Source: Patescibacteria group bacterium
GTDB lineage: Bacteria; Patescibacteriota; Patescibacteriia; Buchananbacterales; UBA6539
DNA length: 64,000 nt
Assembly: GCA_041662625.1 (NCBI GenBank)
Contig: JBAZSB010000001.1
Coordinates: 310,467-374,466 of the forward strand
Direction of reading: 5' to 3'
A program made the translations under genes and the position numbers. The notes below the pieces were generated by a model. It worked only from the letters and a program-made list of their open reading frames with translations, ran no database searches and was not told the origin of the DNA. This document shows positions 10,447 to 59,021 of the stretch, one piece after another. How positions within the stretch are numbered: position 1 is the first letter of the stretch; each line of letters starts with the position of its first letter.

Positions 10447-10453
10447 ATTTTTA

Positions 10454-10523
10454 GAATCAAGGAGTAAGAATCAAGAATCAAGGAAACTAAGCAACCTTAA
10501 TTCTTAATTCTTAATTCTTACTT
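10454..10523. repeat. intergenic palindromic tandem-repeat hairpin, GAATCAAG type, loop core AAGCAACCTT (reverse orientation of AAGGTTGCTT)
   Basis: gaatcaaggagtaagaatcaagaatcaagg-aaactaagcaacc-ttaattcttaattcttaattcttacttc between the mltG stop and the pyrH-like start. Confidence 0.7.
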
Positions 10524-11576
10524 CTATTTGTAATACCTAGCCTTTGCTGCCACATGTTCATCATGAGTCTTGCTGTAAATTACTTTACCATCAGGCGTGG
10601 TCAGAAAATACCAATAAGGATTAGCTTGCGGATAAATTGCTGATTTAATTGCAACAAGACCCGGGTTACAAATTGGCCCTGGCGGCAAACCTTTATATTC
10701 ATAAGTATTATACGGACTGTCAACTTGGATATCAACGGCTGAGGAACGCGCCGCCCCTTTACCAGTAACATAGTTTACTGTGGAGTCAGCTTGCAACGGC
10801 ATGCCCGCCAAAAGACGTTTATAAAAAATGTCAGCCACCAGCTTACGGTCATTTTCCGTTGAAACTTCCTTTTCTAAAATTGAAGCTAAAGTTAAAACCT
10901 CATGGATGGTTTTGCCTTGGCGAGTAATTTCAGACCGTAATTCCGGAGTTAATTTCTTGCCAAAGTTATTAAGCATTTTTTTCACAATGTCAGTAAGCGA
11001 AGCATCCCGGTAAACGCGGTAAGTATCGGGAAAAAGATAGCCTTCTAAATCAGCGGTTTTTGGTCGACTATCTAAAAAATCATATTCATCCCACCAGGCT
11101 GCTTTCTTTTGAACAATATTGAAAAAATCCGCTGGCTGAGCTAAACCATTTTTGGCTAAATAATCAGCAATTTCCTGATTATTCCAACCTTCAATAAAAG
11201 TTAAAGTGATCTCTTTAGTCACGCCGGCACCCCGGCTTAAAATCTGAGCAATCTCTTTCAGGCTTAAATTCTGAGCTAAAAAGTATTCACCATCTTGCAG
11301 GCGGCTATTGATGCCTTGCTGCCAGGTATAAAATTGAAAGAGCCAAGCGCTGCGAATCAAGCCAGCTTTTTGCAATTCCCAACTGATCTCCGTACTCCCC
11401 CAGCCTTTTTCCACTTTAAATTCCTTTTGCTGTGGATTATTAGTAACTGGCTGATTAAGATTATAGGAATAATAAAGCCAGCCGGCTAAAATTAAAACTA
11501 GTAAAATAATTAATAGTTTTCCAGATTTTTTTCTTTTTTTTCGTAAAAACATATTTCTGATTATACTCCTCGCCAT
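10524..11576 (-). CDS. mltG: endolytic murein transglycosylase MltG (YceG-like)
   Basis: N-terminal TM then YceG domain; C-terminal LQADSTVNY...YNTYEYKGLPPGPICNPG motif. Confidence 0.8.
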   Translation of the reverse strand: MARSIIRNMFLRKKRKKSGKLLIILLVLILAGWLYYSYNLNQPVTNNPQQKEFKVEKGWGSTEISWELQKAGLIRSAWLFQFYTWQQGINSRLQDGEYFLAQNLSLKEIAQILSRGAGVTKEITLTFIEGWNNQEIADYLAKNGLAQPADFFNIVQKKAAWWDEYDFLDSRPKTADLEGYLFPDTYRVYRDASLTDIVKKMLNNFGKKLTPELRSEITRQGKTIHEVLTLASILEKEVSTENDRKLVADIFYKRLLAGMPLQADSTVNYVTGKGAARSSAVDIQVDSPYNTYEYKGLPPGPICNPGLVAIKSAIYPQANPYWYFLTTPDGKVIYSKTHDEHVAAKARYYK

Positions 11577-14541: not shown

Positions 14542-14608
14542 GAATTATGAATTATGAATTATGAATTATGTGGTTTCCCTAATTCCTAATTCCTAATTCC
14601 TAATTCCT
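14542..14608. repeat. intergenic palindromic tandem-repeat hairpin: (GAATTATG)x4 - spacer - (CTAATTCC)x4
   Basis: Exact 8-bp tandem units on both arms, in the divergent region between uppP and the DUF212 gene. Confidence 0.75.
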
Positions 14609-24631: not shown

Positions 24632-25615
24632 CTAAAAACCTAAATATTGGACTTCTTCCTGAATCTGGGCGCCCAATTGGTTCCTGACCCGCATTTTAAC
24701 ATCAGAAATTAGCATCATGACGTGTTCGGCTTTGGCCTCACCAGTATTAATAAAAAAGGCACAATGTTTATCAGAAATTTTGCAGCCGCCAATTGTTTTA
24801 TTTTTCAAACCTAAATGGTCAATCACAAAGCCAATCGGCAATTTGCCAAACGCCGTTGCTTCCTGCCATTCTTTTTCAGTGATATCTAATTCCTTAATGG
24901 CTTTTTGGGGATCGATTGCAACTTTATCCAGTTCAATGTTTTGAAAAATGCAGCCAGCGCTGGGTTCATAGGGCAATTTATCATTGCGATCTTTGATTAT
25001 TTTAAGCACTTCGGCATGAATTGCTTGGGAGTCACCATTTTTTAAACCGACAACAACCGATAGAATAATGCCGCCGGTTTGTTTAACCAGACTTTGCCGG
25101 TAACTATATTTCATTTCTTCTTTAGTCAACTCTTGGACTTGCCCATTTTGATAAACTTTAACTTTTTTTATAACATCGCCAAATCCCTTGCCATAAGCGC
25201 CGGCATTGCCTCGCGCAGCGCCACCAACGGTTCCCGGAATTCCTGAAGCAAATTCTAAACCAGTTAAGCCAGCCCGGGCGGCCTCCCCAACTAGCCGGCT
25301 CAGATTGACTCCGGCTTCGGCAAAAATTTCTTCACCTCTGACTTCAAAATTTTCGCTGAGGGTTTTTATTACTAAGCCAGCAAAACCATTATCAGCAACC
25401 ACCAAGTTGCTGCCCCAACCCAAAATAAAATAAGGCAGGTTTAAATCTTGGGCTGTTTTAACCGCCAAAAGTAATTCATCGCTATTTTTGGCAACATAAA
25501 AATACTTAGCCGGTCCACCAATCTTAAAAGTGGTGTGATTAGCCATTGGCTCGTTTTCTTTAACGGTGCCAAGTTTTTGCTGTAGCTGACTTAACATAAA
25601 AGAATTTAGAATCAC
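24632..25615 (-). CDS. murB: UDP-N-acetylenolpyruvoylglucosamine reductase MurB
   Basis: HTTFKIGGPAKYF FAD-binding motif; 327 aa; true start may be the internal Met (MLSQLQQ, about 25597). Confidence 0.8.
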   Translation of the reverse strand: MILNSFMLSQLQQKLGTVKENEPMANHTTFKIGGPAKYFYVAKNSDELLLAVKTAQDLNLPYFILGWGSNLVVADNGFAGLVIKTLSENFEVRGEEIFAEAGVNLSRLVGEAARAGLTGLEFASGIPGTVGGAARGNAGAYGKGFGDVIKKVKVYQNGQVQELTKEEMKYSYRQSLVKQTGGIILSVVVGLKNGDSQAIHAEVLKIIKDRNDKLPYEPSAGCIFQNIELDKVAIDPQKAIKELDITEKEWQEATAFGKLPIGFVIDHLGLKNKTIGGCKISDKHCAFFINTGEAKAEHVMMLISDVKMRVRNQLGAQIQEEVQYLGF

Positions 25616-25680
25616 GAATCAAGAATTAAGGTTGCTTAGCAATTCTCCCTTGATTCTTACTTCTTACTTCTTGATTCTAA
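25604..25680. repeat. intergenic palindromic tandem-repeat hairpin, GAATCAAG type, loop core TTAAGGTTGCTTAGCAA
   Basis: gaatcacgaatcaagaattaaggttgcttagcaattctcccttgattcttacttcttacttcttgattc between the murC stop and the murB start. Confidence 0.7.
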
Positions 25681-27065
25681 TTAATTAGCTTATCCCTAAC
25701 CCGATACACATCTCCTGCCCCCATTGTTACTAAAACTATGCCGGGTTTAATTTTATCTTTCAAACAATTAACTGCGTGATTTAAATCGCCAGCATAAATA
25801 ACATTCTGATGGTAGATTTTGGCTTCTTTGGCCAAATCTTTGGAAGTGATATCTTCGGCTTGTTCCCGGGCGGAAGCAAAAATATCAGCGAATAGCACCA
25901 TATCCACATCATTGAAACTTTGGGCAAAATCATTTAACAAAGCCTTGGTCCGGGAAGCCATATGCGGCTGAAAAACACACCAAATCAAATTATTGGGGAA
26001 ACGCTGACGAATGGCTTTCAGGGTAGTTTTGATTTCGGTGGGATGATGGGCGTAATCATCAACAAAAGTGATACCATTTCTTTCAGAAATATCAAAACGC
26101 CTTTCGCTACCTTTAAATTGTTTCAAAATATTTTGGATTTCGCCGATTTTTAGTCCCTCATTTAAACCAATAATTATTACCGCCAAAGCATTTAAGGCAT
26201 TATGCTCGCCAAAAAGTCCGATTTCAAATTCACCAAAGTCCTGGCCGGCTTTTTTAACTTTAAAAATAGTACGATCGAATTCCACTCTAACATCATAAGC
26301 TTGCCAAGTATTACTTACCTCAAAGCCATAAGTGACGGTTTTGCTTTCATTACCTTTAATAATTTTTTTAATGGCGGGCCAATCGCCACAAACTACCAAT
26401 AGCTCTTTGGTTTTCTGGACTAATTTTTGGAATGCAACCTCCATTGATTCTAAATCAGGATAGATATCAACATGTTCCCATTCTAAACTGGTAATTACCG
26501 AAATTGCCGGATCTAAATCTAAAAATTTTGGCGTTTTATCTTCTTTACTGCGGACATATTCATCACCTTCGACAATAAAGTGGACGCCTGAGGCCCACTT
26601 GGAATTGCTGCCTAAATCCGGCACCATCCCTGTACCAATCAAAAAACTGGGGTCAAGGCCGGCCTGAGAAAACAAATAGGCCATTAGCGCAGTTGTTGTC
26701 GTTTTGCCATGGACACCGGTAATGGCAATAGTTTTTTTCTCTTGGCTTAATAAACCCCGCATTTCTGAATCAGTAATATTAGGCAATTTCCTTTTTTTAG
26801 TTTCGGCTACTTCAATATTATCATCTCCCCAGGAAGTGCCAATTACCACTAAATCCGGATTACAATCCAGATTTGCTGCCGAAAAATCTTCAAAAATTTC
26901 AATCTCATGATCAATTAAAATTTTATCAGTAATAAATTTTTCTTCAACATCGGAACCAAAAACTTCCAGCCCTTTTTGTTTACAAATTACCGCCAAGCCT
27001 GACATCGCCACGCCTTTAATGCCGATGAAATAAACTCTTTTGATTTTAGCTAGATTAATAGCCAT
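25677..27065 (-). CDS. murC: UDP-N-acetylmuramate--L-alanine ligase MurC
   Basis: Mur ligase domains; GVHGKTTTTAL P-loop. Confidence 0.85.
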   Translation of the reverse strand: MAINLAKIKRVYFIGIKGVAMSGLAVICKQKGLEVFGSDVEEKFITDKILIDHEIEIFEDFSAANLDCNPDLVVIGTSWGDDNIEVAETKKRKLPNITDSEMRGLLSQEKKTIAITGVHGKTTTTALMAYLFSQAGLDPSFLIGTGMVPDLGSNSKWASGVHFIVEGDEYVRSKEDKTPKFLDLDPAISVITSLEWEHVDIYPDLESMEVAFQKLVQKTKELLVVCGDWPAIKKIIKGNESKTVTYGFEVSNTWQAYDVRVEFDRTIFKVKKAGQDFGEFEIGLFGEHNALNALAVIIIGLNEGLKIGEIQNILKQFKGSERRFDISERNGITFVDDYAHHPTEIKTTLKAIRQRFPNNLIWCVFQPHMASRTKALLNDFAQSFNDVDMVLFADIFASAREQAEDITSKDLAKEAKIYHQNVIYAGDLNHAVNCLKDKIKPGIVLVTMGAGDVYRVRDKLIN

Positions 27066-41957: not shown

Positions 41958-43013
41958 ATGGAAATTGAGTCATCAAAAAATATCTTCGGCCTAGATATCA
42001 GCCAAAATTGTGTGCGCCTGATCCAGTTAAAAAGGAAAAATAAAGATTTTTCCATTAAATCTTTTAATGAGGTAAGGCTGGCTGATGGAACCATTGTTAA
42101 TGGCGAAATAAAAAATCAGGATAAAATGACAGAGGCCGTTAAAAAATTGGTTAAAACTGTCCAAGGAGACAAGATAAAAACTAAAAATCTTGTCGCCGTT
42201 TTACCTGAACCAAAAACTTTCATTAAAGTAATAGAAATAGTAATTAAAAATGAAAAAGATAACATAACGAAGTTGGTTCAGGAAGAAATAAAAAATCATA
42301 TTCCTTTAGAGGCTGAGGATATCTACTTCGATTGGCAGATTTTAAGCCAAAATAACAATCAGACAAAAATTATAGTGGCGGCAATCCCAAAAGTAATATC
42401 AGACTCTTACTTTGATACTTTAACCAAGGCCGGTTTTATTCCAATCGCTTTAGAAGTTGAAGCCATCGCCATTGCCCGAGCTTTGATCAAAGAAAAAGAA
42501 GAGGACCCCAAAAAAGCTAAAATTATCATTGATTTTGGGGCAACGAGAACCAGCTTAATTATCTACGACCACAAAGCAGTTCAATTCACTGTCAGTTTAC
42601 CAATTTCCGGTGATAAAATTACCGAAACAATTTCTAACACTCTTAGCCTTGATGCCCAAAAGGCGGAAGAAGCAAAAATTGTCTGCGGTTTAGACCAAAA
42701 AAAATGTGAAGGGGCAATATTCAAAATACTTGTAGCCTCAATTAATAATCTGGCTGACCAAATTAAAAAATCAATTATTTTTTACAAAACAAACTTTGTC
42801 GATAGCAATGACATAGCTGGAATTATAATTTGCGGCGGCGGGGCAAACTTGTCCCAAATTGATAAAATATTAACGGAGGCACTTCAAATCCCAACCGCAA
42901 TTGCTAATCCCTTAATCAACCTCGGTAAACAAAAAGGATTAAATATGCCAGCTGACAAATTGCTGTCTTATGCGACGGCTATTGGTCTAGCTTTAAGAAA
43001 TTGGCAAAAATAG
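41958..43013 (+). CDS. pilM: type IV pilus assembly protein PilM (actin-like ATPase fold)
   Basis: 351 aa; FtsA/PilM-like pattern; position upstream of pilN/pilO. Confidence 0.7.
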   Translation: MEIESSKNIFGLDISQNCVRLIQLKRKNKDFSIKSFNEVRLADGTIVNGEIKNQDKMTEAVKKLVKTVQGDKIKTKNLVAVLPEPKTFIKVIEIVIKNEKDNITKLVQEEIKNHIPLEAEDIYFDWQILSQNNNQTKIIVAAIPKVISDSYFDTLTKAGFIPIALEVEAIAIARALIKEKEEDPKKAKIIIDFGATRTSLIIYDHKAVQFTVSLPISGDKITETISNTLSLDAQKAEEAKIVCGLDQKKCEGAIFKILVASINNLADQIKKSIIFYKTNFVDSNDIAGIIICGGGANLSQIDKILTEALQIPTAIANPLINLGKQKGLNMPADKLLSYATAIGLALRNWQK

Positions 43014-43558
43014 AAATGATTACTTTGAATTTAATTTCACCTGAACAAAAAAAAGAACTCGGACTACGCCGGTTTTATATTTTGATCAAAAACTTAACTA
43101 TTATTTTCTTACTTTTTACTACCATTTTAGCAATTATCATGTTAATTGCTAAAATGATTATCCAGAATAATTTCAATAAAGTTGTTAATGATTATTCTTT
43201 GACTACAAGATACAGTCGAATTGTTAATTATGAAATGGAAAATTTTGATAAGCAACTGAACTTTATAGTAAATGTTCAAAATGACTACATCCCCTGGACT
43301 AATTTTATTGCCAGTTTTATCAATTCTGTCCCACCAGAAATTAATCTCTATAGTGTTGATTTGGGAAAGACAGATAGCCAAATGAAAATTAATGGCTTTG
43401 CCCAAAATCGGGATGACCTCTTAAAATTCAAAGGTAATCTAGAAAACCTGCCACTTCTATCGGAAATAAATGTACCAATGGGAAACCTCCTAAAAAAAGA
43501 AAGTATTGAATTCGAAATTGAAGCAAAAATCAACTTAGAAGAATTGAAAAAACTATGA
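43001..43558 (+). CDS. pilN: PilN-like bitopic membrane protein
   Basis: Short cytoplasmic N-terminus, one TM (IIFLLFTTILAIIMLIA), periplasmic coiled-coil domain; overlaps the pilM stop. Confidence 0.55.
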   Translation: MAKIEMITLNLISPEQKKELGLRRFYILIKNLTIIFLLFTTILAIIMLIAKMIIQNNFNKVVNDYSLTTRYSRIVNYEMENFDKQLNFIVNVQNDYIPWTNFIASFINSVPPEINLYSVDLGKTDSQMKINGFAQNRDDLLKFKGNLENLPLLSEINVPMGNLLKKESIEFEIEAKINLEELKKL

Positions 43559-44091
43559 GCCTAAAACTGAAAACTGCTATTATTGTATCACTAAATATCC
43601 TACTTATTATAGTAATTTCTTTGGTTATTATTTTACCAATCACTCGAGATATTAAAAAAATTGGTGATGCAATCTACAAAGAAAGAGTTGATTTGGAAAA
43701 AAAATATTTAAGAGGCCAATTATTGAAAAAAACAGTCAGCGATTTTGAAAAAATAAAACCTCAAAAAGACAGATTGAATGCTATTTTTATTATTGAAGGT
43801 GAGGAACTAAAATTTGTTTCTAGGCTGGAAGAAATTGCCAGTTTAAATAATGTCCGCCAAACTATTGAGCTAGATACAAAAAATTCTGAGATTCAGGAAG
43901 GAATAAAGATATTACCTTTAAAAATAACAACCCAGGGTAATTTTGTATCAATAATGAAATACCTAACTGATTTGGAACAACTCAATTATTATTTTAATAT
44001 TTATTCAGTCAGAATAGGAACGGAAAAAGATTTAATTATTGCTACTTTAGATGGTAAAATTTTCAGCCAGGGTAAAGAGGAAATAAAATAA
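43555..44091 (+). CDS. pilO: PilO-like bitopic membrane protein
   Basis: One TM then coiled-coil/ferredoxin-like C-domain; overlaps the pilN stop. Confidence 0.5.
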   Translation: MSLKLKTAIIVSLNILLIIVISLVIILPITRDIKKIGDAIYKERVDLEKKYLRGQLLKKTVSDFEKIKPQKDRLNAIFIIEGEELKFVSRLEEIASLNNVRQTIELDTKNSEIQEGIKILPLKITTQGNFVSIMKYLTDLEQLNYYFNIYSVRIGTEKDLIIATLDGKIFSQGKEEIK

Positions 44092-44096
44092 ACAAC

Positions 44097-44414
44097 ATGA
44101 AATTAAAACTTGCAAAAATAGCCACCTCTTCAAAAACTATCACCCTGATAGTAACCTTGATTTTTATTATTATTTTAGGGTATTTCGGCGGATTTTTATA
44201 TAAAAATATTTATCAAACCATTACTCAATCCCAGGAAATTATCGTTATGAGGGCAGAAGTTTCCCCCTATGCAATTAACATCGAAAAATTTAATGATATC
44301 TTAACAGCAATTGACAAAAAAAGTACCGCTACAAATACTCCCGCTTGGCAAGAGATGAGGAACCCTTTTGGTTTTACTTCAATTAATCGGCCAACGACCG
44401 GCGGAATAGATTAA
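44097..44414 (+). CDS. small single-TM protein, last gene of the pilus operon (PilP-like?)
   Basis: 105 aa, one TM segment. Confidence 0.3.
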   Translation: MKLKLAKIATSSKTITLIVTLIFIIILGYFGGFLYKNIYQTITQSQEIIVMRAEVSPYAINIEKFNDILTAIDKKSTATNTPAWQEMRNPFGFTSINRPTTGGID

Positions 44415-44449: not shown

Positions 44450-44476
44450 AAAACCGAGGTCTATACCTCGGTTTTA
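44450..44476. terminator. bidirectional intrinsic terminator between the pilus operon and iscS
   Basis: AAAACCGAGGT-ctata-CCTCGGTTTT. Confidence 0.7.
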
Positions 44477-44497: not shown

Positions 44498-45667
44498 TTA
44501 TTTTATTGGCGATATCATCCTTAATTTAGCCACAATCCTCGGTAAAACCTCCAATAAATAATCAACATCTTTTTCTGTATTGAATTTACCCAAAGTTATC
44601 CTTAAACTGCCATGAGCCAACAGCGGATCCATGCCTAGACTCATAAGGACATGAGATGGCTCCAATGAGCCAGAAGAGCAGGCCGAACCGGTAGAAACGG
44701 CAATCCCTTCTTGGTCTAAAAGTAAAAGCATACTTTCACCTTCTACCCCCTTAAAACTAAAGTGGGCATTGCTTGGGACTCGTTTTTCTAAATCACCATT
44801 AACTTGGGTATTAGGAATATTTTTCAAAACGCCAGCAATTAATTTATCACTTAATTTTTTTATTTTCTTATTACTTTCTTGATCTTGAGTGATAAGTTCG
44901 ACTGCCTTCCCTAGGCCAATGATACCGGGCACATTTAAAGTGCCAGGGCGCAAACCTTTTTCCTGATGGCCGCCAAATTGAATTGGGCTAAGTGGCGTAC
45001 CAGCCCTTTTATACAAAACCCCGATACCTTTTGGTCCATAAATTTTATGACCGGACAAAGATAATAAATCAACCCCCAATTTGTCAACATTCATCTCACA
45101 ATAATTAGCAGCTTGGACCGCGTCAGTATGAAAATAAATTCTGTTTTCTGATTTCCGTTTTCTGTTTTCTTCCTTTACCAATTCTCCAATTTCAACAATT
45201 GACTGAATAGTTCCGATCTCATTATTAACATACATAACTGAAATCAAACGGGTATTCTCTTTAATCGCCTGTTTGATATCATCAACGGAAACTAAACCTT
45301 TATTGCTCACGCCAATATAAGTAACTTCCACGCCTCTTTTTTCCATCTCCCGGCAGGGCTCCAAAATGGCCGGATGTTCAATTCTAGTAGTAATAATATG
45401 TTCGCCTGGCTTGGCTAAACCCAAAATCACAAGATTATCACTTTCAGTCGCTCCAGAAGTGAAAAAGACTTCACTAGTCTTACTCCCTAAAAAATCAGCA
45501 ACGATTTCTCTGGCTTCATCCACTTTTGCCATAGCTGTTTGGCCGTGAATATGAATTGACGAAGCATTACCAAAAGTTTCAGAAAAATAAGGCAACATTT
45601 CTTTAAGAACCTGGGGGGCCACCGGAGTAGTGGCTGAATGGTCAAAGTAGATTTTTTGGTTAGACAT
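44498..45667 (-). CDS. iscS: cysteine desulfurase IscS/NifS
   Basis: PLP-lysine motif SGHKIYGPKGIGVLY; active Cys near the C-terminus (GSACSSGS). Confidence 0.85.
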   Translation of the reverse strand: MSNQKIYFDHSATTPVAPQVLKEMLPYFSETFGNASSIHIHGQTAMAKVDEAREIVADFLGSKTSEVFFTSGATESDNLVILGLAKPGEHIITTRIEHPAILEPCREMEKRGVEVTYIGVSNKGLVSVDDIKQAIKENTRLISVMYVNNEIGTIQSIVEIGELVKEENRKRKSENRIYFHTDAVQAANYCEMNVDKLGVDLLSLSGHKIYGPKGIGVLYKRAGTPLSPIQFGGHQEKGLRPGTLNVPGIIGLGKAVELITQDQESNKKIKKLSDKLIAGVLKNIPNTQVNGDLEKRVPSNAHFSFKGVEGESMLLLLDQEGIAVSTGSACSSGSLEPSHVLMSLGMDPLLAHGSLRITLGKFNTEKDVDYLLEVLPRIVAKLRMISPIK

Positions 45668-45760: not shown

Positions 45761-45985
45761 TTAAACGGCCTCAATATCTTTAACACCCTTAACCTTACTC
45801 TTTAAAACCCGGCCAATACCATCTTGCAAAGTCATCTGTGACATTGGACAACCAGCGCAAGCCCCTTGGAGTTTAAGCTTGACTATACCTTTCTTTTCAT
45901 CAACATCAATTAGTTCTACATCGCCGCCATCGGCTTGAAGGGTAGGCCTTATTTCATCTAGAATTTTTTTTACTTCGTCTTTCAT
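45761..45985 (-). CDS. NifU-like (Nfu C-terminal-type) Fe-S assembly protein
   Basis: CAGCPMS CxxC motif; 74 aa. Confidence 0.65.
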
Positions 45986-45996
45986 AGTTAGTTATA

Positions 45997-46072
45997 GAAT
46001 TAAGAATCATGAATCAAGAATTAAGGTTGCTTGGTAGTACTTCCTTGATTCTTGATTCTTACTTCTTGATTC
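45997..46072. repeat. intergenic palindromic tandem-repeat hairpin, GAATCAAG type, loop core TTAAGGTTGCTTGG
   Basis: gaattaagaatcatgaatcaagaattaaggttgcttggtagtacttccttgattcttgattcttacttcttgattc between the iscU stop and the nfu start. Confidence 0.7.
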
Positions 46073-46517
46073 AATCTTCGGTAATCTTATAATCCTTAAT
46101 TTCCGGATATTGATCCAGCACCCTCTCTTTTTCTAGATAATTCCTGATTGCCACTTTCAAAGCATCGGAAGCTAAAACTGAACAATGTAGTTTAACTGGC
46201 GGCAATTCACCAAGGCCTTTGACAATATCTTTTTTTTCCAAAATCCAAGCTTCTTTTAAAGTTTTACCTTTGACCATATCGGTTGAAATTGAAGAACAGG
46301 CAATCGCTGCGGCACAACCTAAGGTTTCAAACTTAACGTCTGAAATCACGTCTTCCAATCGGTTGACAGTTGACGACGGGTGATCAACCTTTAAATAAAT
46401 TTTCATCATATCCCCGCATAAAGGGTTACCGACTTCACCAATCGCGTCAGCGTCAGCAATTTGACCCTGGTTATGGGGATTTTGGAAATGATCCATTACT
46501 TTTTTAGAATATGGCAT
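46071..46517 (-). CDS. iscU: Fe-S cluster scaffold IscU/NifU N-terminal-type
   Basis: NPLCGD, ...GCAAAIACSS conserved Cys ligands. Confidence 0.8.
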   Translation of the reverse strand: MPYSKKVMDHFQNPHNQGQIADADAIGEVGNPLCGDMMKIYLKVDHPSSTVNRLEDVISDVKFETLGCAAAIACSSISTDMVKGKTLKEAWILEKKDIVKGLGELPPVKLHCSVLASDALKVAIRNYLEKERVLDQYPEIKDYKITED

Positions 46518-46547
46518 AAGCTTAAATTAGAAATTCATAATTAAAAA

Positions 46548-46946
46548 TTAAATCAAATCTTTCAAAGTCATTGATTTTAAACTGTCAGTAATCGCTTTTT
46601 GGACTTTTTGATAGACTTTAGCTGACGGACAAGCCTTAACCCCGCAAAAAACCCGACCATTCACGCCCAGACAATGAAAGACCGAGATTTGTCCTTCTAA
46701 AGCCTCTATAACGCTAAAAACGCTGATTTTTGAAGGGTTTCTGGCCAATTGATAGCCACCAGCCATTCCTTTCGAGCTAAGCACTAAATCGGCCTTTTTT
46801 AAACGAGAAAAAAGTCGTTCCAAATAGGCCTGGGAGATCTTTTCGGCTTTAGCCATTTTAGCTAAAGAATAAGGTCCCTGGGCGTAATTTTTAGCTAAAT
46901 GGATTATTGCCCTTAAGCCATAAGATGATCTGGTGGAAAATTTCAT
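46548..46946 (-). CDS. iscR: Rrf2-family transcriptional regulator (IscR-like)
   Basis: MKFSTRSSYGLRAIIHLA Rrf2 HTH; three Cys (CLGVNGRVFCGVKAC) consistent with a cluster-binding IscR. Confidence 0.7.
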   Translation of the reverse strand: MKFSTRSSYGLRAIIHLAKNYAQGPYSLAKMAKAEKISQAYLERLFSRLKKADLVLSSKGMAGGYQLARNPSKISVFSVIEALEGQISVFHCLGVNGRVFCGVKACPSAKVYQKVQKAITDSLKSMTLKDLI

Positions 46947-47031
46947 ATATTAAATTGGCTAAAATCGGGCAAGACCAGAGGGTGGACTGAATTAACTAGA
47001 TTAGATTCCCACCCTCCTCTCGCCACACTTA

Positions 47032-47082
47032 TTAGCAACCGCAGCCGGGGCCGCAGTTACTACAGCACGAACAATTGTCCAT
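47032..47082 (-). CDS. 16-codon Cys-rich leader ORF MDNCSCCSNCGPGCGC (7 Cys) upstream of iscR
   Basis: ATG at 47082-47080, double stop TAATAA at 47034-47029; preceded by promoter TTGACA(47160-47155)-16nt-TAAAAT(47138-47133); followed by an 8-bp-stem hairpin GAGGGTGG...CCACCCTC (46977-47017) before the iscR start at 46946. Confidence 0.3.
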   Translation of the reverse strand: MDNCSCCSNCGPGCGC

Positions 47083-47132
47083 ATATTGAGCGCTTAATTA
47101 TTAATACCAACCATTTTAGTCGGTATTTATTA

Positions 47133-47160
47133 ATTTTAGCAAATAAAAAAAGTCTGTCAA
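47133..47160 (-). promoter_or_regulatory. sigma70-like promoter for the Cys-rich leader and the isc operon
   Basis: TTGACA-16nt-TAAAAT on minus strand; overlapped by one copy of a CAAGACC(C)CAGAGG direct repeat (second copy at 46967-46981). Confidence 0.4.
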
Positions 47161-47184
47161 GACCCCAGAGGATATAGCTAAAGA

Positions 47185-47790
47185 TTAATCGAAATTTTTA
47201 ATTAAAGTAATAGCTTCTTTAAGCTGCCTAGCTAAATTTTTTGACGGATCAAAGGTATACAAAAAAGGCCGATTTAAATTTTTATAAAGCGATTTTGTCC
47301 GATAATAATTTCTGACTGCTTGGTCACTATTTTCAAAAAGCCAGGTATGTTTGTAGTTTCGTAATTTTTTGATAATAAATTGCTCGGGTGGATTTACATG
47401 GAGCCAAATAATTTTTACTTTAAATCGATTTTTAATTTTTTTCAAATAAACTTGTGCCTCTTCTGAGGCGCAATTAGTATCTAAAGCAATGCTAAATCCT
47501 TGCTTTAAATACTTTAGTGCAACGGTAAAAACCATTTCTTTATTCCGATTGTAATTATAACCATTTTCCTTAAGCAGTTGCCTGATTTCATCGGCACTTA
47601 TCCGTAATAATGATAACTTATGACTTAACGGTTTAATAACAGTGGTTTTACCCGCACCAACTAGTCCAACTGGACAAATTATAATTTGTTTGCTTAATTT
47701 CTTCTTTGGTACAATTAATTTTTTTTCATAAACAACTAATAAATCTTTCAGCTTATTATCGGAAAGATTTTTTGGATCTTGGCCTTCCAT
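47185..47790 (-). CDS. P-loop kinase-like protein (AAA_33 / zeta-toxin-like fold), hypothetical
   Basis: Walker A GLVGAGKTTV. Confidence 0.4.
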   Translation of the reverse strand: MEGQDPKNLSDNKLKDLLVVYEKKLIVPKKKLSKQIIICPVGLVGAGKTTVIKPLSHKLSLLRISADEIRQLLKENGYNYNRNKEMVFTVALKYLKQGFSIALDTNCASEEAQVYLKKIKNRFKVKIIWLHVNPPEQFIIKKLRNYKHTWLFENSDQAVRNYYRTKSLYKNLNRPFLYTFDPSKNLARQLKEAITLIKNFD

Positions 47791-47793
47791 ATT

Positions 47794-48633
47794 CTATTCA
47801 TTGACAATAATGACTACTTTTCTCCCCTGCTCCATTTCTTGATCAGTCATACCCCCTGCCGCTAAAGTGTGATCCCAATCATGGATGGCAGCAATTAATT
47901 TTTGATATTTATAACGGTAACCTTCACCTTTTCTAGTTCCTGGGTCATTAGTAATAAACTCGCCTTTGTTATCGTCATAACCACGGATTACCAGCATGTG
48001 GTAAATCGGACCGGCTCCGGTAAAATTTGGATTGCCTAGTTGCCGACCGGCGGCCGGAACAATAATCAGCTGACCGGCTAAAAGTTGTTTCTTGATATTT
48101 TCCACCGAAACATCGGTTGTCGTTTTAGCCGAAACCGCAAAATAATTTTTTAAAATTGATGTGGCTTCATCGGCCGTAACATCAACCTGATAGCCGTTTT
48201 CCTCTTCCCATTTAACTAAATTCAAAATCCCCTGTTCCATAAGGTGCGGACTTAACGGCTCTTTTTTAAAATATTTTACCGCCATAATCATGGCCGCTTC
48301 TTCGCAGGCTTCTTCATGCAACGCATCCCAGTTAGAAAAAGGCGCCTGACTGGCAAACGCCACAGGATAATCTAAAAATTTAGGAATCTCATTATTCTCA
48401 ATAATCGGCGTAACGGGTTTAACCGGTTCAACTGGTTTAGGCTCGGTTTTCACCGTTGTAGTTGGTTTGATTGGCTCAACTGTCTTATTGGTCGAACTTG
48501 GCGTCGTTGTGGCTTGAACTTCCGGTAAAGAATTGTTCTGATTTAGTAAAGCAACCTCTGTCTGATTTTGGCAGGCGACTAACGTAAAAATTGATGCAAT
48601 TAGCAAAAAATGTTTTATTTTCATACTCTCCAA
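47794..48633 (-). CDS. lipoprotein with C39-like (papain-fold) peptidase domain
   Basis: Lipobox LVAC after signal peptide; Thr/Pro/Val-rich linker; C-terminal C39_2-like domain (conserved Cys in EEACEEAAMIMAVKYF, His in YHMLVIRGYDD). Confidence 0.45.
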   Translation of the reverse strand: MESMKIKHFLLIASIFTLVACQNQTEVALLNQNNSLPEVQATTTPSSTNKTVEPIKPTTTVKTEPKPVEPVKPVTPIIENNEIPKFLDYPVAFASQAPFSNWDALHEEACEEAAMIMAVKYFKKEPLSPHLMEQGILNLVKWEEENGYQVDVTADEATSILKNYFAVSAKTTTDVSVENIKKQLLAGQLIIVPAAGRQLGNPNFTGAGPIYHMLVIRGYDDNKGEFITNDPGTRKGEGYRYKYQKLIAAIHDWDHTLAAGGMTDQEMEQGRKVVIIVNE

Positions 48634-48723
48634 GTATATCCTAACCAGCCTTTCTTGACAATTCGGCCGCCATAAGCTATTATACTTCCATCCCTAATTT
48701 CTAATTCCTACTTCCTAAAAAAT

Positions 48724-50720: not shown

Positions 50721-50790
50721 GAATTAGGAATTAGGAATTAGGAATTAGGAATTGCTCATTCCTAACTCATAATTCATAATTCGTTATTCC
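50721..50790. repeat. intergenic palindromic tandem-repeat hairpin: (GAATTAGG)x4 - spacer - CTAACTCATAATTCATAATTCGTTATTCC
   Basis: Between the rplI stop and the pyrG start. Confidence 0.7.
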
Positions 50791-54084: not shown

Positions 54085-54090
54085 TTTTTA

Positions 54091-54163
54091 GAATCAAGAA
54101 TCAAGAATCAAGAATCAAGCAGTAACTTAGCACCCTTGATTCTTGATTCACGATTCATAATTC
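54091..54163. repeat. intergenic palindromic tandem-repeat hairpin: (GAATCAAG)x4 - spacer - CTTGATTCTTGATTCACGATTCATAATTC
   Basis: Immediately upstream of the PPDK_N gene start. Confidence 0.7.
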
Positions 54164-54339
54164 TTCACTATTGTTTGTTCTTTAACTTAATAATATCAGA
54201 ATTTCCTTATTTATCAAATAAATTATTTCAATAAAATACTAATTTTAGCCAAAATTAACCAAAAGTAATTGACAAAACTAGTAAAATATGCTATTATTAT
54301 ATATTGCTCTCTAAAATAAAATTGGTTAAATTCGCGCCT

Positions 54340-58422: not shown

Positions 58423-59021
58423 ATCTTTTTAGTTTTTTTTAATAATATTAAAGCCACAATAACTCCATTACCTAATAAGCCATTCACAATCGGGTGAACA
58501 TATGCGATCCAATCTACACCAGGATCAAATAATAAAGAAATTGTTGAAAATAGATACGCTACAATAACAGTACTCCAGGCCACATAATGTTCTTTTCCAG
58601 TTCCTTTTATTATTCCAAAAATGGTAGGGATATAAGAAATGATATAGGTTCCCTGCAAAAGGAGATTAGCGACTCTGTCATTTGATGTAATTTGCCAAAA
58701 GAATCCTATCACCAGAGCTAAGACAAAAATAATAATTTCGATATTAGACACCCTTGCAAACCGCCCCTTAATTCGGGCATATACTAAGATGATAAAGACT
58801 GATAAAGTTACAGCAATTACAATAAAACTTTGCCATAAATTATCATTGGTTACAGAAAAATAAGTGATTGCATTAATAATCCCGATTAAAAACCAAATTC
58901 CCCAAGTTGACGGGTTGGGCGTTGATTGACCTTTAAATATCTGTTTAAAATAAAGCCCATAGGCAATCAATGCCGTTATACCGGCCAATAATCCAAAAAT
59001 GTATGAATAATTCATAGTCAT
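58419..59021 (-). CDS. hypothetical polytopic membrane protein
   Basis: 200 aa; 6 hydrophobic helices. Confidence 0.4.
   Translation of the reverse strand: MTMNYSYIFGLLAGITALIAYGLYFKQIFKGQSTPNPSTWGIWFLIGIINAITYFSVTNDNLWQSFIVIAVTLSVFIILVYARIKGRFARVSNIEIIIFVLALVIGFFWQITSNDRVANLLLQGTYIISYIPTIFGIIKGTGKEHYVAWSTVIVAYLFSTISLLFDPGVDWIAYVHPIVNGLLGNGVIVALILLKKTKKI

Follow-up and report, generated by a model that had tools for sequence, protein, structure and literature searches.

Within a 64,000-nucleotide (nt) stretch of contig JBAZSB010000001.1 from a Patescibacteria group bacterium, referred to here as the window, an operon for the assembly of iron-sulfur (Fe-S) clusters is preceded by a leader that contains a small open reading frame (sORF) rich in cysteine (Cys) codons, followed by a GC-rich hairpin, and that may serve to sense the supply of Cys-tRNA. 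The genes of the operon lie on the minus strand and encode, in order, a regulator of the Rrf2 family (46548 to 46946, 132 amino acids (aa)), a NifU/IscU-type Fe-S scaffold (46071 to 46517, 148 aa; TIGR03419, 173.9 bits), an Nfu-type Fe-S carrier corresponding to the NifU C-terminal domain (45761 to 45985, 74 aa; PF01106 in orthologous loci), and a NifS/IscS-type cysteine desulfurase, a cysteine-consuming enzyme (44498 to 45667, 389 aa; TIGR03402, 503.7 bits). An intrinsic terminator after nifS, canonical as read from the sequence, closes the operon (44450 to 44475, minus strand; AAAACCGAGG-TATAG-ACCTCGGTTTT). A preliminary description of this DNA had named the operon iscR-iscU-nfu-iscS; the type of operon and the Nfu assignment stand, while the best scores of the other products are with the Rrf2 family (IscR/CymR-like) and the NifU and NifS types. 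It had also placed the start of the Rrf2 gene after the hairpin, and the start at 46946 agrees with this.

Upstream of the sORF is a sigma-70-type promoter (47133 to 47160, minus strand), the top promoter-like site in a scan of 46000 to 48000. It consists of a −35 box TTGACA (47160-47155), a 16-nt spacer and a −10 box TAAAAT (47138-47133), as previously described, with 11 of 12 matches, and an additional TG at 47141-47140 makes it an extended −10 promoter. The gap between the −10 box and the ATG of the sORF, earlier given as about 45 nt, measures 50 nt. This gap holds a feature missing from the preliminary description, a 23-nt palindrome with perfect arms, ATACCGACTAAAATGGTTGGTAT (47104 to 47126), which sits directly 3' of the −10 box, overlaps the predicted transcription start, and is separated from the sORF ATG by an AU-rich linker of 21 nt. 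As RNA it would fold into a 10-bp 5' hairpin, and it is present as a single copy in the window, where 0.06 would be expected.

Related loci were gathered by scanning genome and metagenome collections and by looking up homologues of the regulator, and came from metagenome-assembled genomes of the Patescibacteria/Buchananbacteria type. There are 22 distinct loci, including the window, with Rrf2 proteins 67-100% identical and the same operon in all. The palindrome is kept as ATACCNACN7GTNGGTAT in every one of them, at a fixed distance from the promoter: all 22 have cTTGACA-N16/17-TAnnnT followed, 6-7 nt on, by ATACCNAC-N7-GTNGGTAT. Since promoter and palindrome are kept throughout, the sORF lies inside the operon transcript. 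The palindrome is similar to the type-1 operator of IscR, ATASYYGACTRWWWYAGTCRRSTAT, and like it overlaps the promoter of an operon headed by an Rrf2 gene, being 2 nt shorter than that consensus, which is from Escherichia coli; it is probably the operator of the Rrf2 (IscR-like) repressor. The regulator itself is IscR/CymR-like (TIGR00738, 124 bits), scoring under the cut-offs of both the IscR and CymR models, the IscR equivalog cut-off among them, and has three Cys in the arrangement C-x8-C-x4-C-P. These candidate cluster ligands are kept in all 20 homologues compared. Because the promoter and palindrome are kept in all loci, the palindrome is unique in the window and the three Cys are conserved, the promoter is a credible candidate for autoregulation by an Fe-S-sensing regulator.

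The sORF (47032 to 47082, minus strand) comprises 16 codons and a stop, with its ATG at 47082, a TAA at 47034-47032 and a second in-frame TAA at 47031-47029, and would specify the peptide MDNCSCCSNCGPGCGC. It had been noticed as a Cys-codon-rich leader ORF of 16 aa with a double stop, all of which holds, and credited with seven Cys, where the count is six (four TGC and two TGT). No other among 615 ATG-initiated sORFs of 6-40 aa in the window has as many. Cys accounts for 38% of the codons, compared with 1.04% in 28 window genes. In shuffled windows (n = 40) sORFs of up to 20 aa never contained more than four Cys, and an ORF with six Cys arose in 0 of 2000 shuffles of the leader that preserved its dinucleotides. 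No other Cys-rich sORF was found in an intergenic leader of the window, the next best, at 58836, lying within a 200-aa ORF. The 3' half of the sORF forms a hairpin, H2 (47035 to 47060, minus strand; GUAACUGCGGCC / GGCUGCGGUUGC), which covers Cys codons 10, 14, and 16 and may be a by-product of repeated UGC and GGC codons. A search for tRNA genes in the window found none.

The second hairpin, H3 (46968 to 47024, minus strand), begins 7 nt past the first stop codon of the sORF and extends over 57 nt, with an outer 7-bp stem (GGCGAGA/UCUUGCC), a 2-nt bulge, an inner 9-bp stem (GGAGGGUGG/CCACCCUCU), and a variable apex. The hairpin first reported here, with an 8-bp stem and a 25-nt loop, is a real inverted repeat (GAGGGTGG, 47016-47009, and CCACCCTC, 46985-46978), but its arms are 23 nt apart and form the inner part of what is a two-tier structure of 7 and 9 bp. 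The leader RNA folds much better than its shuffles (z = −3.9, 0/200). An RNAalifold comparison of H3 in the window and loci L011, L024, and L025 gave 17 pairs, five of them with compensatory double changes, while the apex varies freely. These four loci share a hairpin of the type GGCGAGR...YCUUGCC; in the other four loci with an sORF and hairpin there are different GC-rich hairpins in the same place. The sequence of H3 is not repeated elsewhere in the window, and no Rfam family was found, either in a permissive scan of the region, which gave only noise at E<=10, or in a scan of the whole window at gathering thresholds. From H3 to the start codon of the Rrf2 gene there is an AU-rich linker of 21 nt, CGAUUUUAGCCAAUUUAAUAU (46947 to 46967, minus strand), with a run of four U at 46964-46961, 3 nt off the stem. 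A second promoter 3' of H3 was considered and dropped, as the distance of the −35-like box TTGCCC from the Rrf2 ATG varies (14-25 nt) and no −10 box fits.

A direct repeat, CAAGACC(C)CAGAGG, had been reported over the −35 box and near the hairpin. It is present, at 46961-46976, in the 3' arm of H3, and at 47149-47164 (CCTCTGG(G)GTCTTG(A/C)C on the other strand), but it is marginal, its score being reached in 4 of 300 shuffles, and none of seven related leaders has it. Being confined to the window, it was rejected as a functional or mobile-element feature; speculatively, it could date from the origin of the sORF and hairpin, perhaps by a local duplication. AATATATG is also common to the start codons of the sORF (47080-47087) and the Rrf2 gene (46944-46951).

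The module of sORF and hairpin occurs in 8 of the 22 loci, six times in a Cys-rich form with 4-8 Cys in 14-22 codons, once in a minimal form, and once frameshifted. Besides that of the window, the peptides are MAKCLCFSNSGPGCC (L011), MAKGPGCCVCDGGC (L023), MANCPKHCNCGPECDCNCGCGC (L024), MVKCCPCCHCGNNCGC (L025/L026), and MAKAQVCPVCSHKKGCGCKCCS (L027), along with the minimal MTGPGCC of L001, which has two Cys, and MTAPVAANCS of L033, a frameshifted remnant with a single Cys codon. Conservation of the sORF and its Cys codons in orthologous leaders had been proposed as a check, and where a leader exists it is borne out, with six further loci carrying 2-8 Cys codons in the same place. More distant loci, L037 (56%-identity regulator) and L006-L008 and L019-L022 (28-44%), have no comparable Cys sORF. 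The leader of L002 is AT-rich and without Cys codons. In two relatives, L002/L012 and L037, a long AT-rich leader replaces the module (at about 130 and about 100 nt before the Rrf2 ATG, respectively), with short ORFs for the non-Cys peptides MWLKPDD and MPHNEKPFIKQIFF, each ended by a stop codon; these could be decayed or alternative leaders.

Across the eight sORFs, TGY triplets are distributed in a frame-specific manner, with 38 in frame, none in the +1 frame, and five in the +2 frame, four of the latter from L033. This bias indicates selection on translated Cys codons and not a by-product of GC-rich stems, and it disposes of the possibility, raised in the preliminary description, of a chance ORF. 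When each leader was shuffled with its dinucleotides preserved, the observed number of Cys was matched in 0-1 of 2000 shuffles in five loci and in 13 of 2000 in L011. The differences in length between sORFs are multiples of three, a Cys codon stands directly before the TAA in six of the seven intact sORFs, and the start context AUAUGG is conserved. Two adjacent Cys occur in the window, L011, L023, L025, L027, and L001, whereas L024 has only CxC repeats. In a comparison of the window with L025, five of six Cys positions persist and new Cys appear, whereas about 8 of 10 of the other residues are different. Such free turnover of the other residues with retention of Cys is, on the face of these sequences, the pattern seen in classic leader peptides. 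Pooled, the peptides contain 38 Cys in 115 residues (33%) and one aromatic residue, a Phe. TGC is used over TGT by 28 to 10, compared with about 1:1 in genes, and every sORF can pair with itself in its 3' half; a constraint at the level of RNA therefore acts alongside the coding constraint.

These observations lead us to favour, with moderate confidence, the interpretation that the sORF and H3 constitute a Cys-tRNA-sensing leader peptide of the autoregulated Rrf2-nifU-nfu-nifS operon. We infer that the sORF is translated, that ribosomes stall at its Cys codons, and that this has an effect downstream, as well as the sign of that effect. Transcription would begin at about 47127 from the conserved promoter, under the control of the Rrf2 operator, and ribosomes would then load on the sORF without a Shine-Dalgarno (SD) sequence. 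In this respect, an SD-like 4-mer lies within 25 nt of the start in only 14 of the 61 window ORFs of at least 100 aa, and a strong one in three; initiation of translation appears to be largely SD-independent, relying on AU-rich linkers that follow hairpins. The time that a ribosome takes to reach the stop codon would report the supply of Cys-tRNA(Cys), because Cys makes up 38% of the sORF and 1% of the proteome. With Cys codons scattered along the entire frame and the stop codon abutting H3, the arrangement can report a single variable, namely whether and how quickly a ribosome gets to the end of the sORF. The spacer between the stop codon and H3 is 6-10 nt across the module loci. With the ribosome modelled as a footprint of 28 nt and the last Cys codon in the A site, five of the seven loci have the edge of the footprint within 0-1 nt of H3; a footprint at the stop codon reaches 1-3 bp into the hairpin. 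Only a ribosome that finishes the sORF would touch and partly open H3, and one stalled on any Cys codon would leave it intact. If H3 acts as a weak terminator, a roadblock or a processing signal, expression of the desulfurase operon would be tied to the supply of cysteine, the substrate of the downstream enzyme NifS.

As to the sign of the effect, we prefer a form of licensing, in which ample cysteine would allow read-through and scarce cysteine would lead to less IscS. A shortage of cysteine would already derepress the promoter through apo-IscR, and a brake operated by Cys-tRNA would prevent scarce cysteine from being drained by an excess of the enzyme that destroys it. The opposite, classic sign of regulation might hold instead.

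Several observations weigh against such a sensor. A search for alternative folds, suggested earlier as a check, came out negative: no alternative antiterminator or anti-sequester helix was predicted in any of the eight leaders when the footprint was masked over the stop codon or over one of three Cys codons (first, middle, last), and this constrained folding left H3 intact in 8/8. There is no U-run directly at the stem of H3, where the tails have 2-4 U per 8 nt and are displaced by about 3 nt, unlike the terminator of nifS, which has its U-run at the stem; a terminator scan called none in 46000-48000, although its loop limit of 8 nt would miss H3. Strong hairpins (z = −3.5 to −8) that end 10-20 nt before the next ATG are common in the intercistronic spacers of this genome, two such spacers lying within the isc operon itself. 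Since this layout of hairpin, linker, and ATG is genome-wide, H3 by itself is not diagnostic of attenuation and may be generic operon architecture, not part of a sensor. Sequestration of an SD sequence of the mycobacterial type was ruled out, as no SD precedes the Rrf2 gene and the genome is nearly devoid of them; masking is not applicable because SD sequences are hardly used. Furthermore, the operon consumes cysteine and does not make or charge it, and to our knowledge every known Cys leader belongs to an operon other than a cysteine-consuming one. The distribution of the module raises a further difficulty. In 13 of the 22 loci there is no leader, the Rrf2 ATG following 5-27 nt past the palindrome, and one of these (L009) has a regulator 89% identical. 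With so many close relatives lacking a leader, the module is accessory. In a neighbour-joining tree of the regulators, loci with the module are interspersed among those without, which suggests that it was lost repeatedly, or both gained and lost. A deletion of 1 nt in L033 relative to L001 loses the Cys frame, and the hairpins remain. Lastly, a Gly-Pro-Gly sequence is kept via synonymous third-position changes in four to five loci, which hints at some constraint on the peptide. The resemblance to amino-acid attenuators that was claimed at the outset is plausible, and has precedent, but the anatomy that it implied was not found.

The nearest precedents are the polycysteine leader ORFs of mycobacteria, which have been shown experimentally to be Cys-responsive attenuators (Canestrari et al., bioRxiv 10.1101/834739). 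As in the module, these ORFs (Ms5788A / Rv0815A and others) are short, unannotated first ORFs of operons with Cys codons near the C-terminus and stop, and they share its patchy phylogeny, poorly conserved non-Cys residues, and downstream genes of cysteine and sulfur metabolism. Two consecutive Cys codons suffice in the mycobacterial leaders (10.1101/834739), and such pairs are a further likeness to the intact module sORFs, L024 excepted. There are also differences. The mycobacterial sORFs are leaderless, whereas a 5' untranslated region (UTR) of about 45 nt, including the operator hairpin, is predicted here; Cys codons are interspersed here (CxC, CGC) as well as tandem; and the Cys tract pairs within the sORF (H2) and not with a downstream ribosome-binding site. 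The operon here is an Fe-S operon that consumes cysteine, with a probable IscR-type operator and in the phylum Patescibacteria. In actinobacteria, Cys leader peptides have been predicted for cys operons, also without terminators (PMC1262725), and in Rhodobacterales ribosome stalling on Cys codons has been proposed for uORFC-8-2, a motif that precedes cysS (Brewer et al. 2021, PMC8632094). In that motif, as here, the Cys codons prefer UGC and lie inside a first stem that is followed by a second. It has two tandem Cys codons (14-15), a clear U-run terminator, and cysS downstream, in contrast to 4-8 Cys, no canonical U-run, and isc genes here. The leader gave no Rfam hit to uORFC-8-2, whose presence in Rfam 15 was left unchecked, and its downstream gene is not cysS.

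Comparison can be extended to the trp, his, leu, pheA, and thr attenuators, which likewise have a leader of 14-22 codons with 30-45% of one amino acid, 3' of the promoter and followed by a stable hairpin; the pheA leader, for example, has 7 Phe of 15. Here no pair of terminator and antiterminator was found, the U-tract is weak and displaced, and the operon is not one for the biosynthesis of the amino acid in question. The closest mechanistic analogy is the attenuation by occlusion or coupling at pyrE. In rph-pyrE and pyrBI of E. coli, as here, an upstream frame ends just before a hairpin. Read-through there requires a ribosome to come close to the hairpin, and at pyrE it is set by how far the upstream stop codon lies from the attenuator loop, so that expression changes when the stop is moved (PMC2784333). 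Those systems sense UTP via RNA polymerase pausing and have canonical terminators, whereas the signal here would be Cys-tRNA, read via the speed of the ribosome. The Cys-leader precedents all stand before genes other than those of Fe-S assembly, and all come from outside Patescibacteria; a search of the literature for a Cys upstream ORF before isc or nifS genes, or in Patescibacteria, found no report.

Other explanations of the module must be weighed against a Cys-tRNA sensor. The main rival, less probable but still a serious one, is that the sORF is the first cistron of the operon and specifies a thiolate-rich micropeptide, either metallothionein-like or a ligand for Fe-S clusters, metals or sulfur, made under IscR control and with H3 as a generic hairpin. 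The peptides are 33% Cys, with Gly, Asn, Pro, Ala, Lys, and Ser next, and in this composition and in their CxC, CC, and CGC motifs they resemble small metallothioneins. The frame-specific conservation of Cys would fit a peptide product equally well, as would the retention of Gly-Pro-Gly through different codons (GGC/GGT/GGA and CCC/CCA/CCG), and with each cistron of the operon preceded by a hairpin, a linker, and an ATG, the sORF and H3 resemble one more cistron. Against this, neither the length of the peptides (7-22 aa) nor their number of Cys (2-8) is constant, and Cys positions shift between close relatives (S5C, C6P, and S8C between the window and L025). The seven residues of MTGPGCC and the frameshifted L033 are hard to square with a folded metal site, and the module seems to have been lost completely, and repeatedly. 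Pfam, including its metallothionein families, gave no match at E<=10 for the 22-aa peptides or a doubled window peptide, a weak test with such short queries. The smallest metallothioneins that we know of have at least 25 aa, and we know of no bacterial one as small as these peptides. That a small Cys-rich protein of a metal-regulated operon can go overlooked does have a precedent in IsiE, of the Fur regulon of cyanobacteria (PMC8634477). Metallothioneins and IsiE share with the module a high Cys content in CxC, CC, and CxxC, little other conservation, and an operon under a metal- or Fe-S-sensing regulator; IsiE has 59 aa, compared with 7-22 aa here, where Cys positions are not fixed and no family matches. 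In an unlikely variant, the peptide itself, in its forms of 14-22 residues, would be a working part of a minimal Fe-S assembly system, as the smallest known bacterial peptide that is metallothionein-like or carries Fe-S or persulfide, with the mRNA perhaps also reporting cysteine in the manner of a dual-function leader. A secreted peptide or a ribosomally synthesized and post-translationally modified peptide (RiPP), offered as an alternative in the preliminary description, is improbable, as there is no signal or leader region and there are no modifying enzymes. A RiPP or bacteriocin route via the neighbouring C39-like peptidase was likewise set aside, the peptidase gene being syntenic with or without the sORF.

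The module might also be mainly an RNA element, a structured 5' leader or a small RNA of H2 and H3 that affects how stable the mRNA is, how it is processed or how translation of the Rrf2 gene starts without an SD, with the Cys codons a by-product of GC-rich, self-complementary UGC/GGC stems; this we regard as quite improbable. The folding of the leader beyond that of its shuffles, the self-complementary 3' half of every sORF, the preference for TGC, and the generic occurrence of intercistronic hairpins in the genome all suit it, and GUUGCUGCUAAUYGCAGC and both hairpins are kept between L001 and L033 despite their different frames. A by-product would not, on the other hand, yield 37 of 38 TGY triplets in a single frame after a conserved ATG in seven independent sequences, nor preserve length changes in multiples of three or a TAA that directly follows the final Cys codon. 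The unstructured 5' half of the sORF has Cys codons as well (codons 4-7), and no Rfam family matches. The least probable of these explanations, in our estimation, is that the sORF is translated but belongs to a neutral or decaying lineage-specific insert between the operator and the Rrf2 start, perhaps a local duplication. Its patchy occurrence, scattered on the regulator tree, is what would be expected of such an insert, as are the degenerate forms in L001 and L033 and the unrelated AT-rich leader of L002, and the direct repeat found only in the window, together with AATATATG at both start codons, hints at duplication. Yet neutrality would not account for 4-8 in-frame Cys codons kept in six diverged copies in which the remaining codons have largely turned over, nor for the compensatory changes in H3.

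Patescibacteria are uncultured, have very few regulators, and largely do without SD-led initiation. If Cys-tRNA sensing is true, this would be the first control of the leader-peptide type found in Patescibacteria, a group also known as the Candidate Phyla Radiation (CPR), and the first Cys-codon leader placed over cysteine-consuming Fe-S assembly, as opposed to cysteine synthesis or charging. The supply of substrate would then be a second input beside IscR feedback on the demand for Fe-S clusters, and the attenuator would be one that works without an antiterminator. Leader ORFs with Cys codons are known already; what differs here is the phylum, the class of operon, and an anatomy that fails the classic attenuator tests, and the mechanism is one that we infer. 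Whether the product that matters is the leader or the peptide, the sORF is a conserved, unannotated gene of 16 codons that standard gene callers have overlooked.

Many spacers of the window also contain tandem heptamer arrays of 4-5 near-perfect copies (14542-14608, 50721-50782, 54090-54165, 10453-10525, 25600-25682, 45996-46072, and 48693-48718). Their mRNA-sense sequence is (AATTCCT)n, (AATTCAT)n or (GATTCTT)n, placed right before start codons, and often they are paired with a complementary (AGAATCA)n to give long AT-rich hairpins that end 10-20 nt before the ATG. Two of the arrays are inside the isc operon, between nifU and nfu. They appear to be an element of 5'-UTRs or intercistronic spacers that is spread genome-wide in this lineage.

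At 47794-48633 on the minus strand lies a gene for a lipoprotein-like protein (about 280 aa) that has a Peptidase_C39_2 domain. Its synteny with the Fe-S operon is conserved: nearly every relative has the gene just upstream of the isc promoter, with orthologues in L001, L003-L005, L023, L025, L027, L028, L033, L035, and L036. An inserted AAA_33 kinase-like gene separates it from the isc promoter in both the window and L024. Beyond the 3' end of nifS, on the opposite strand, there is a run of co-directional ORFs (41958-44414, plus strand). As judged from translation alone, the first of these (351 aa) resembles the type IV pilus assembly protein PilM, and the short ORFs that follow, each with one hydrophobic N-terminal segment, resemble PilN and PilO.

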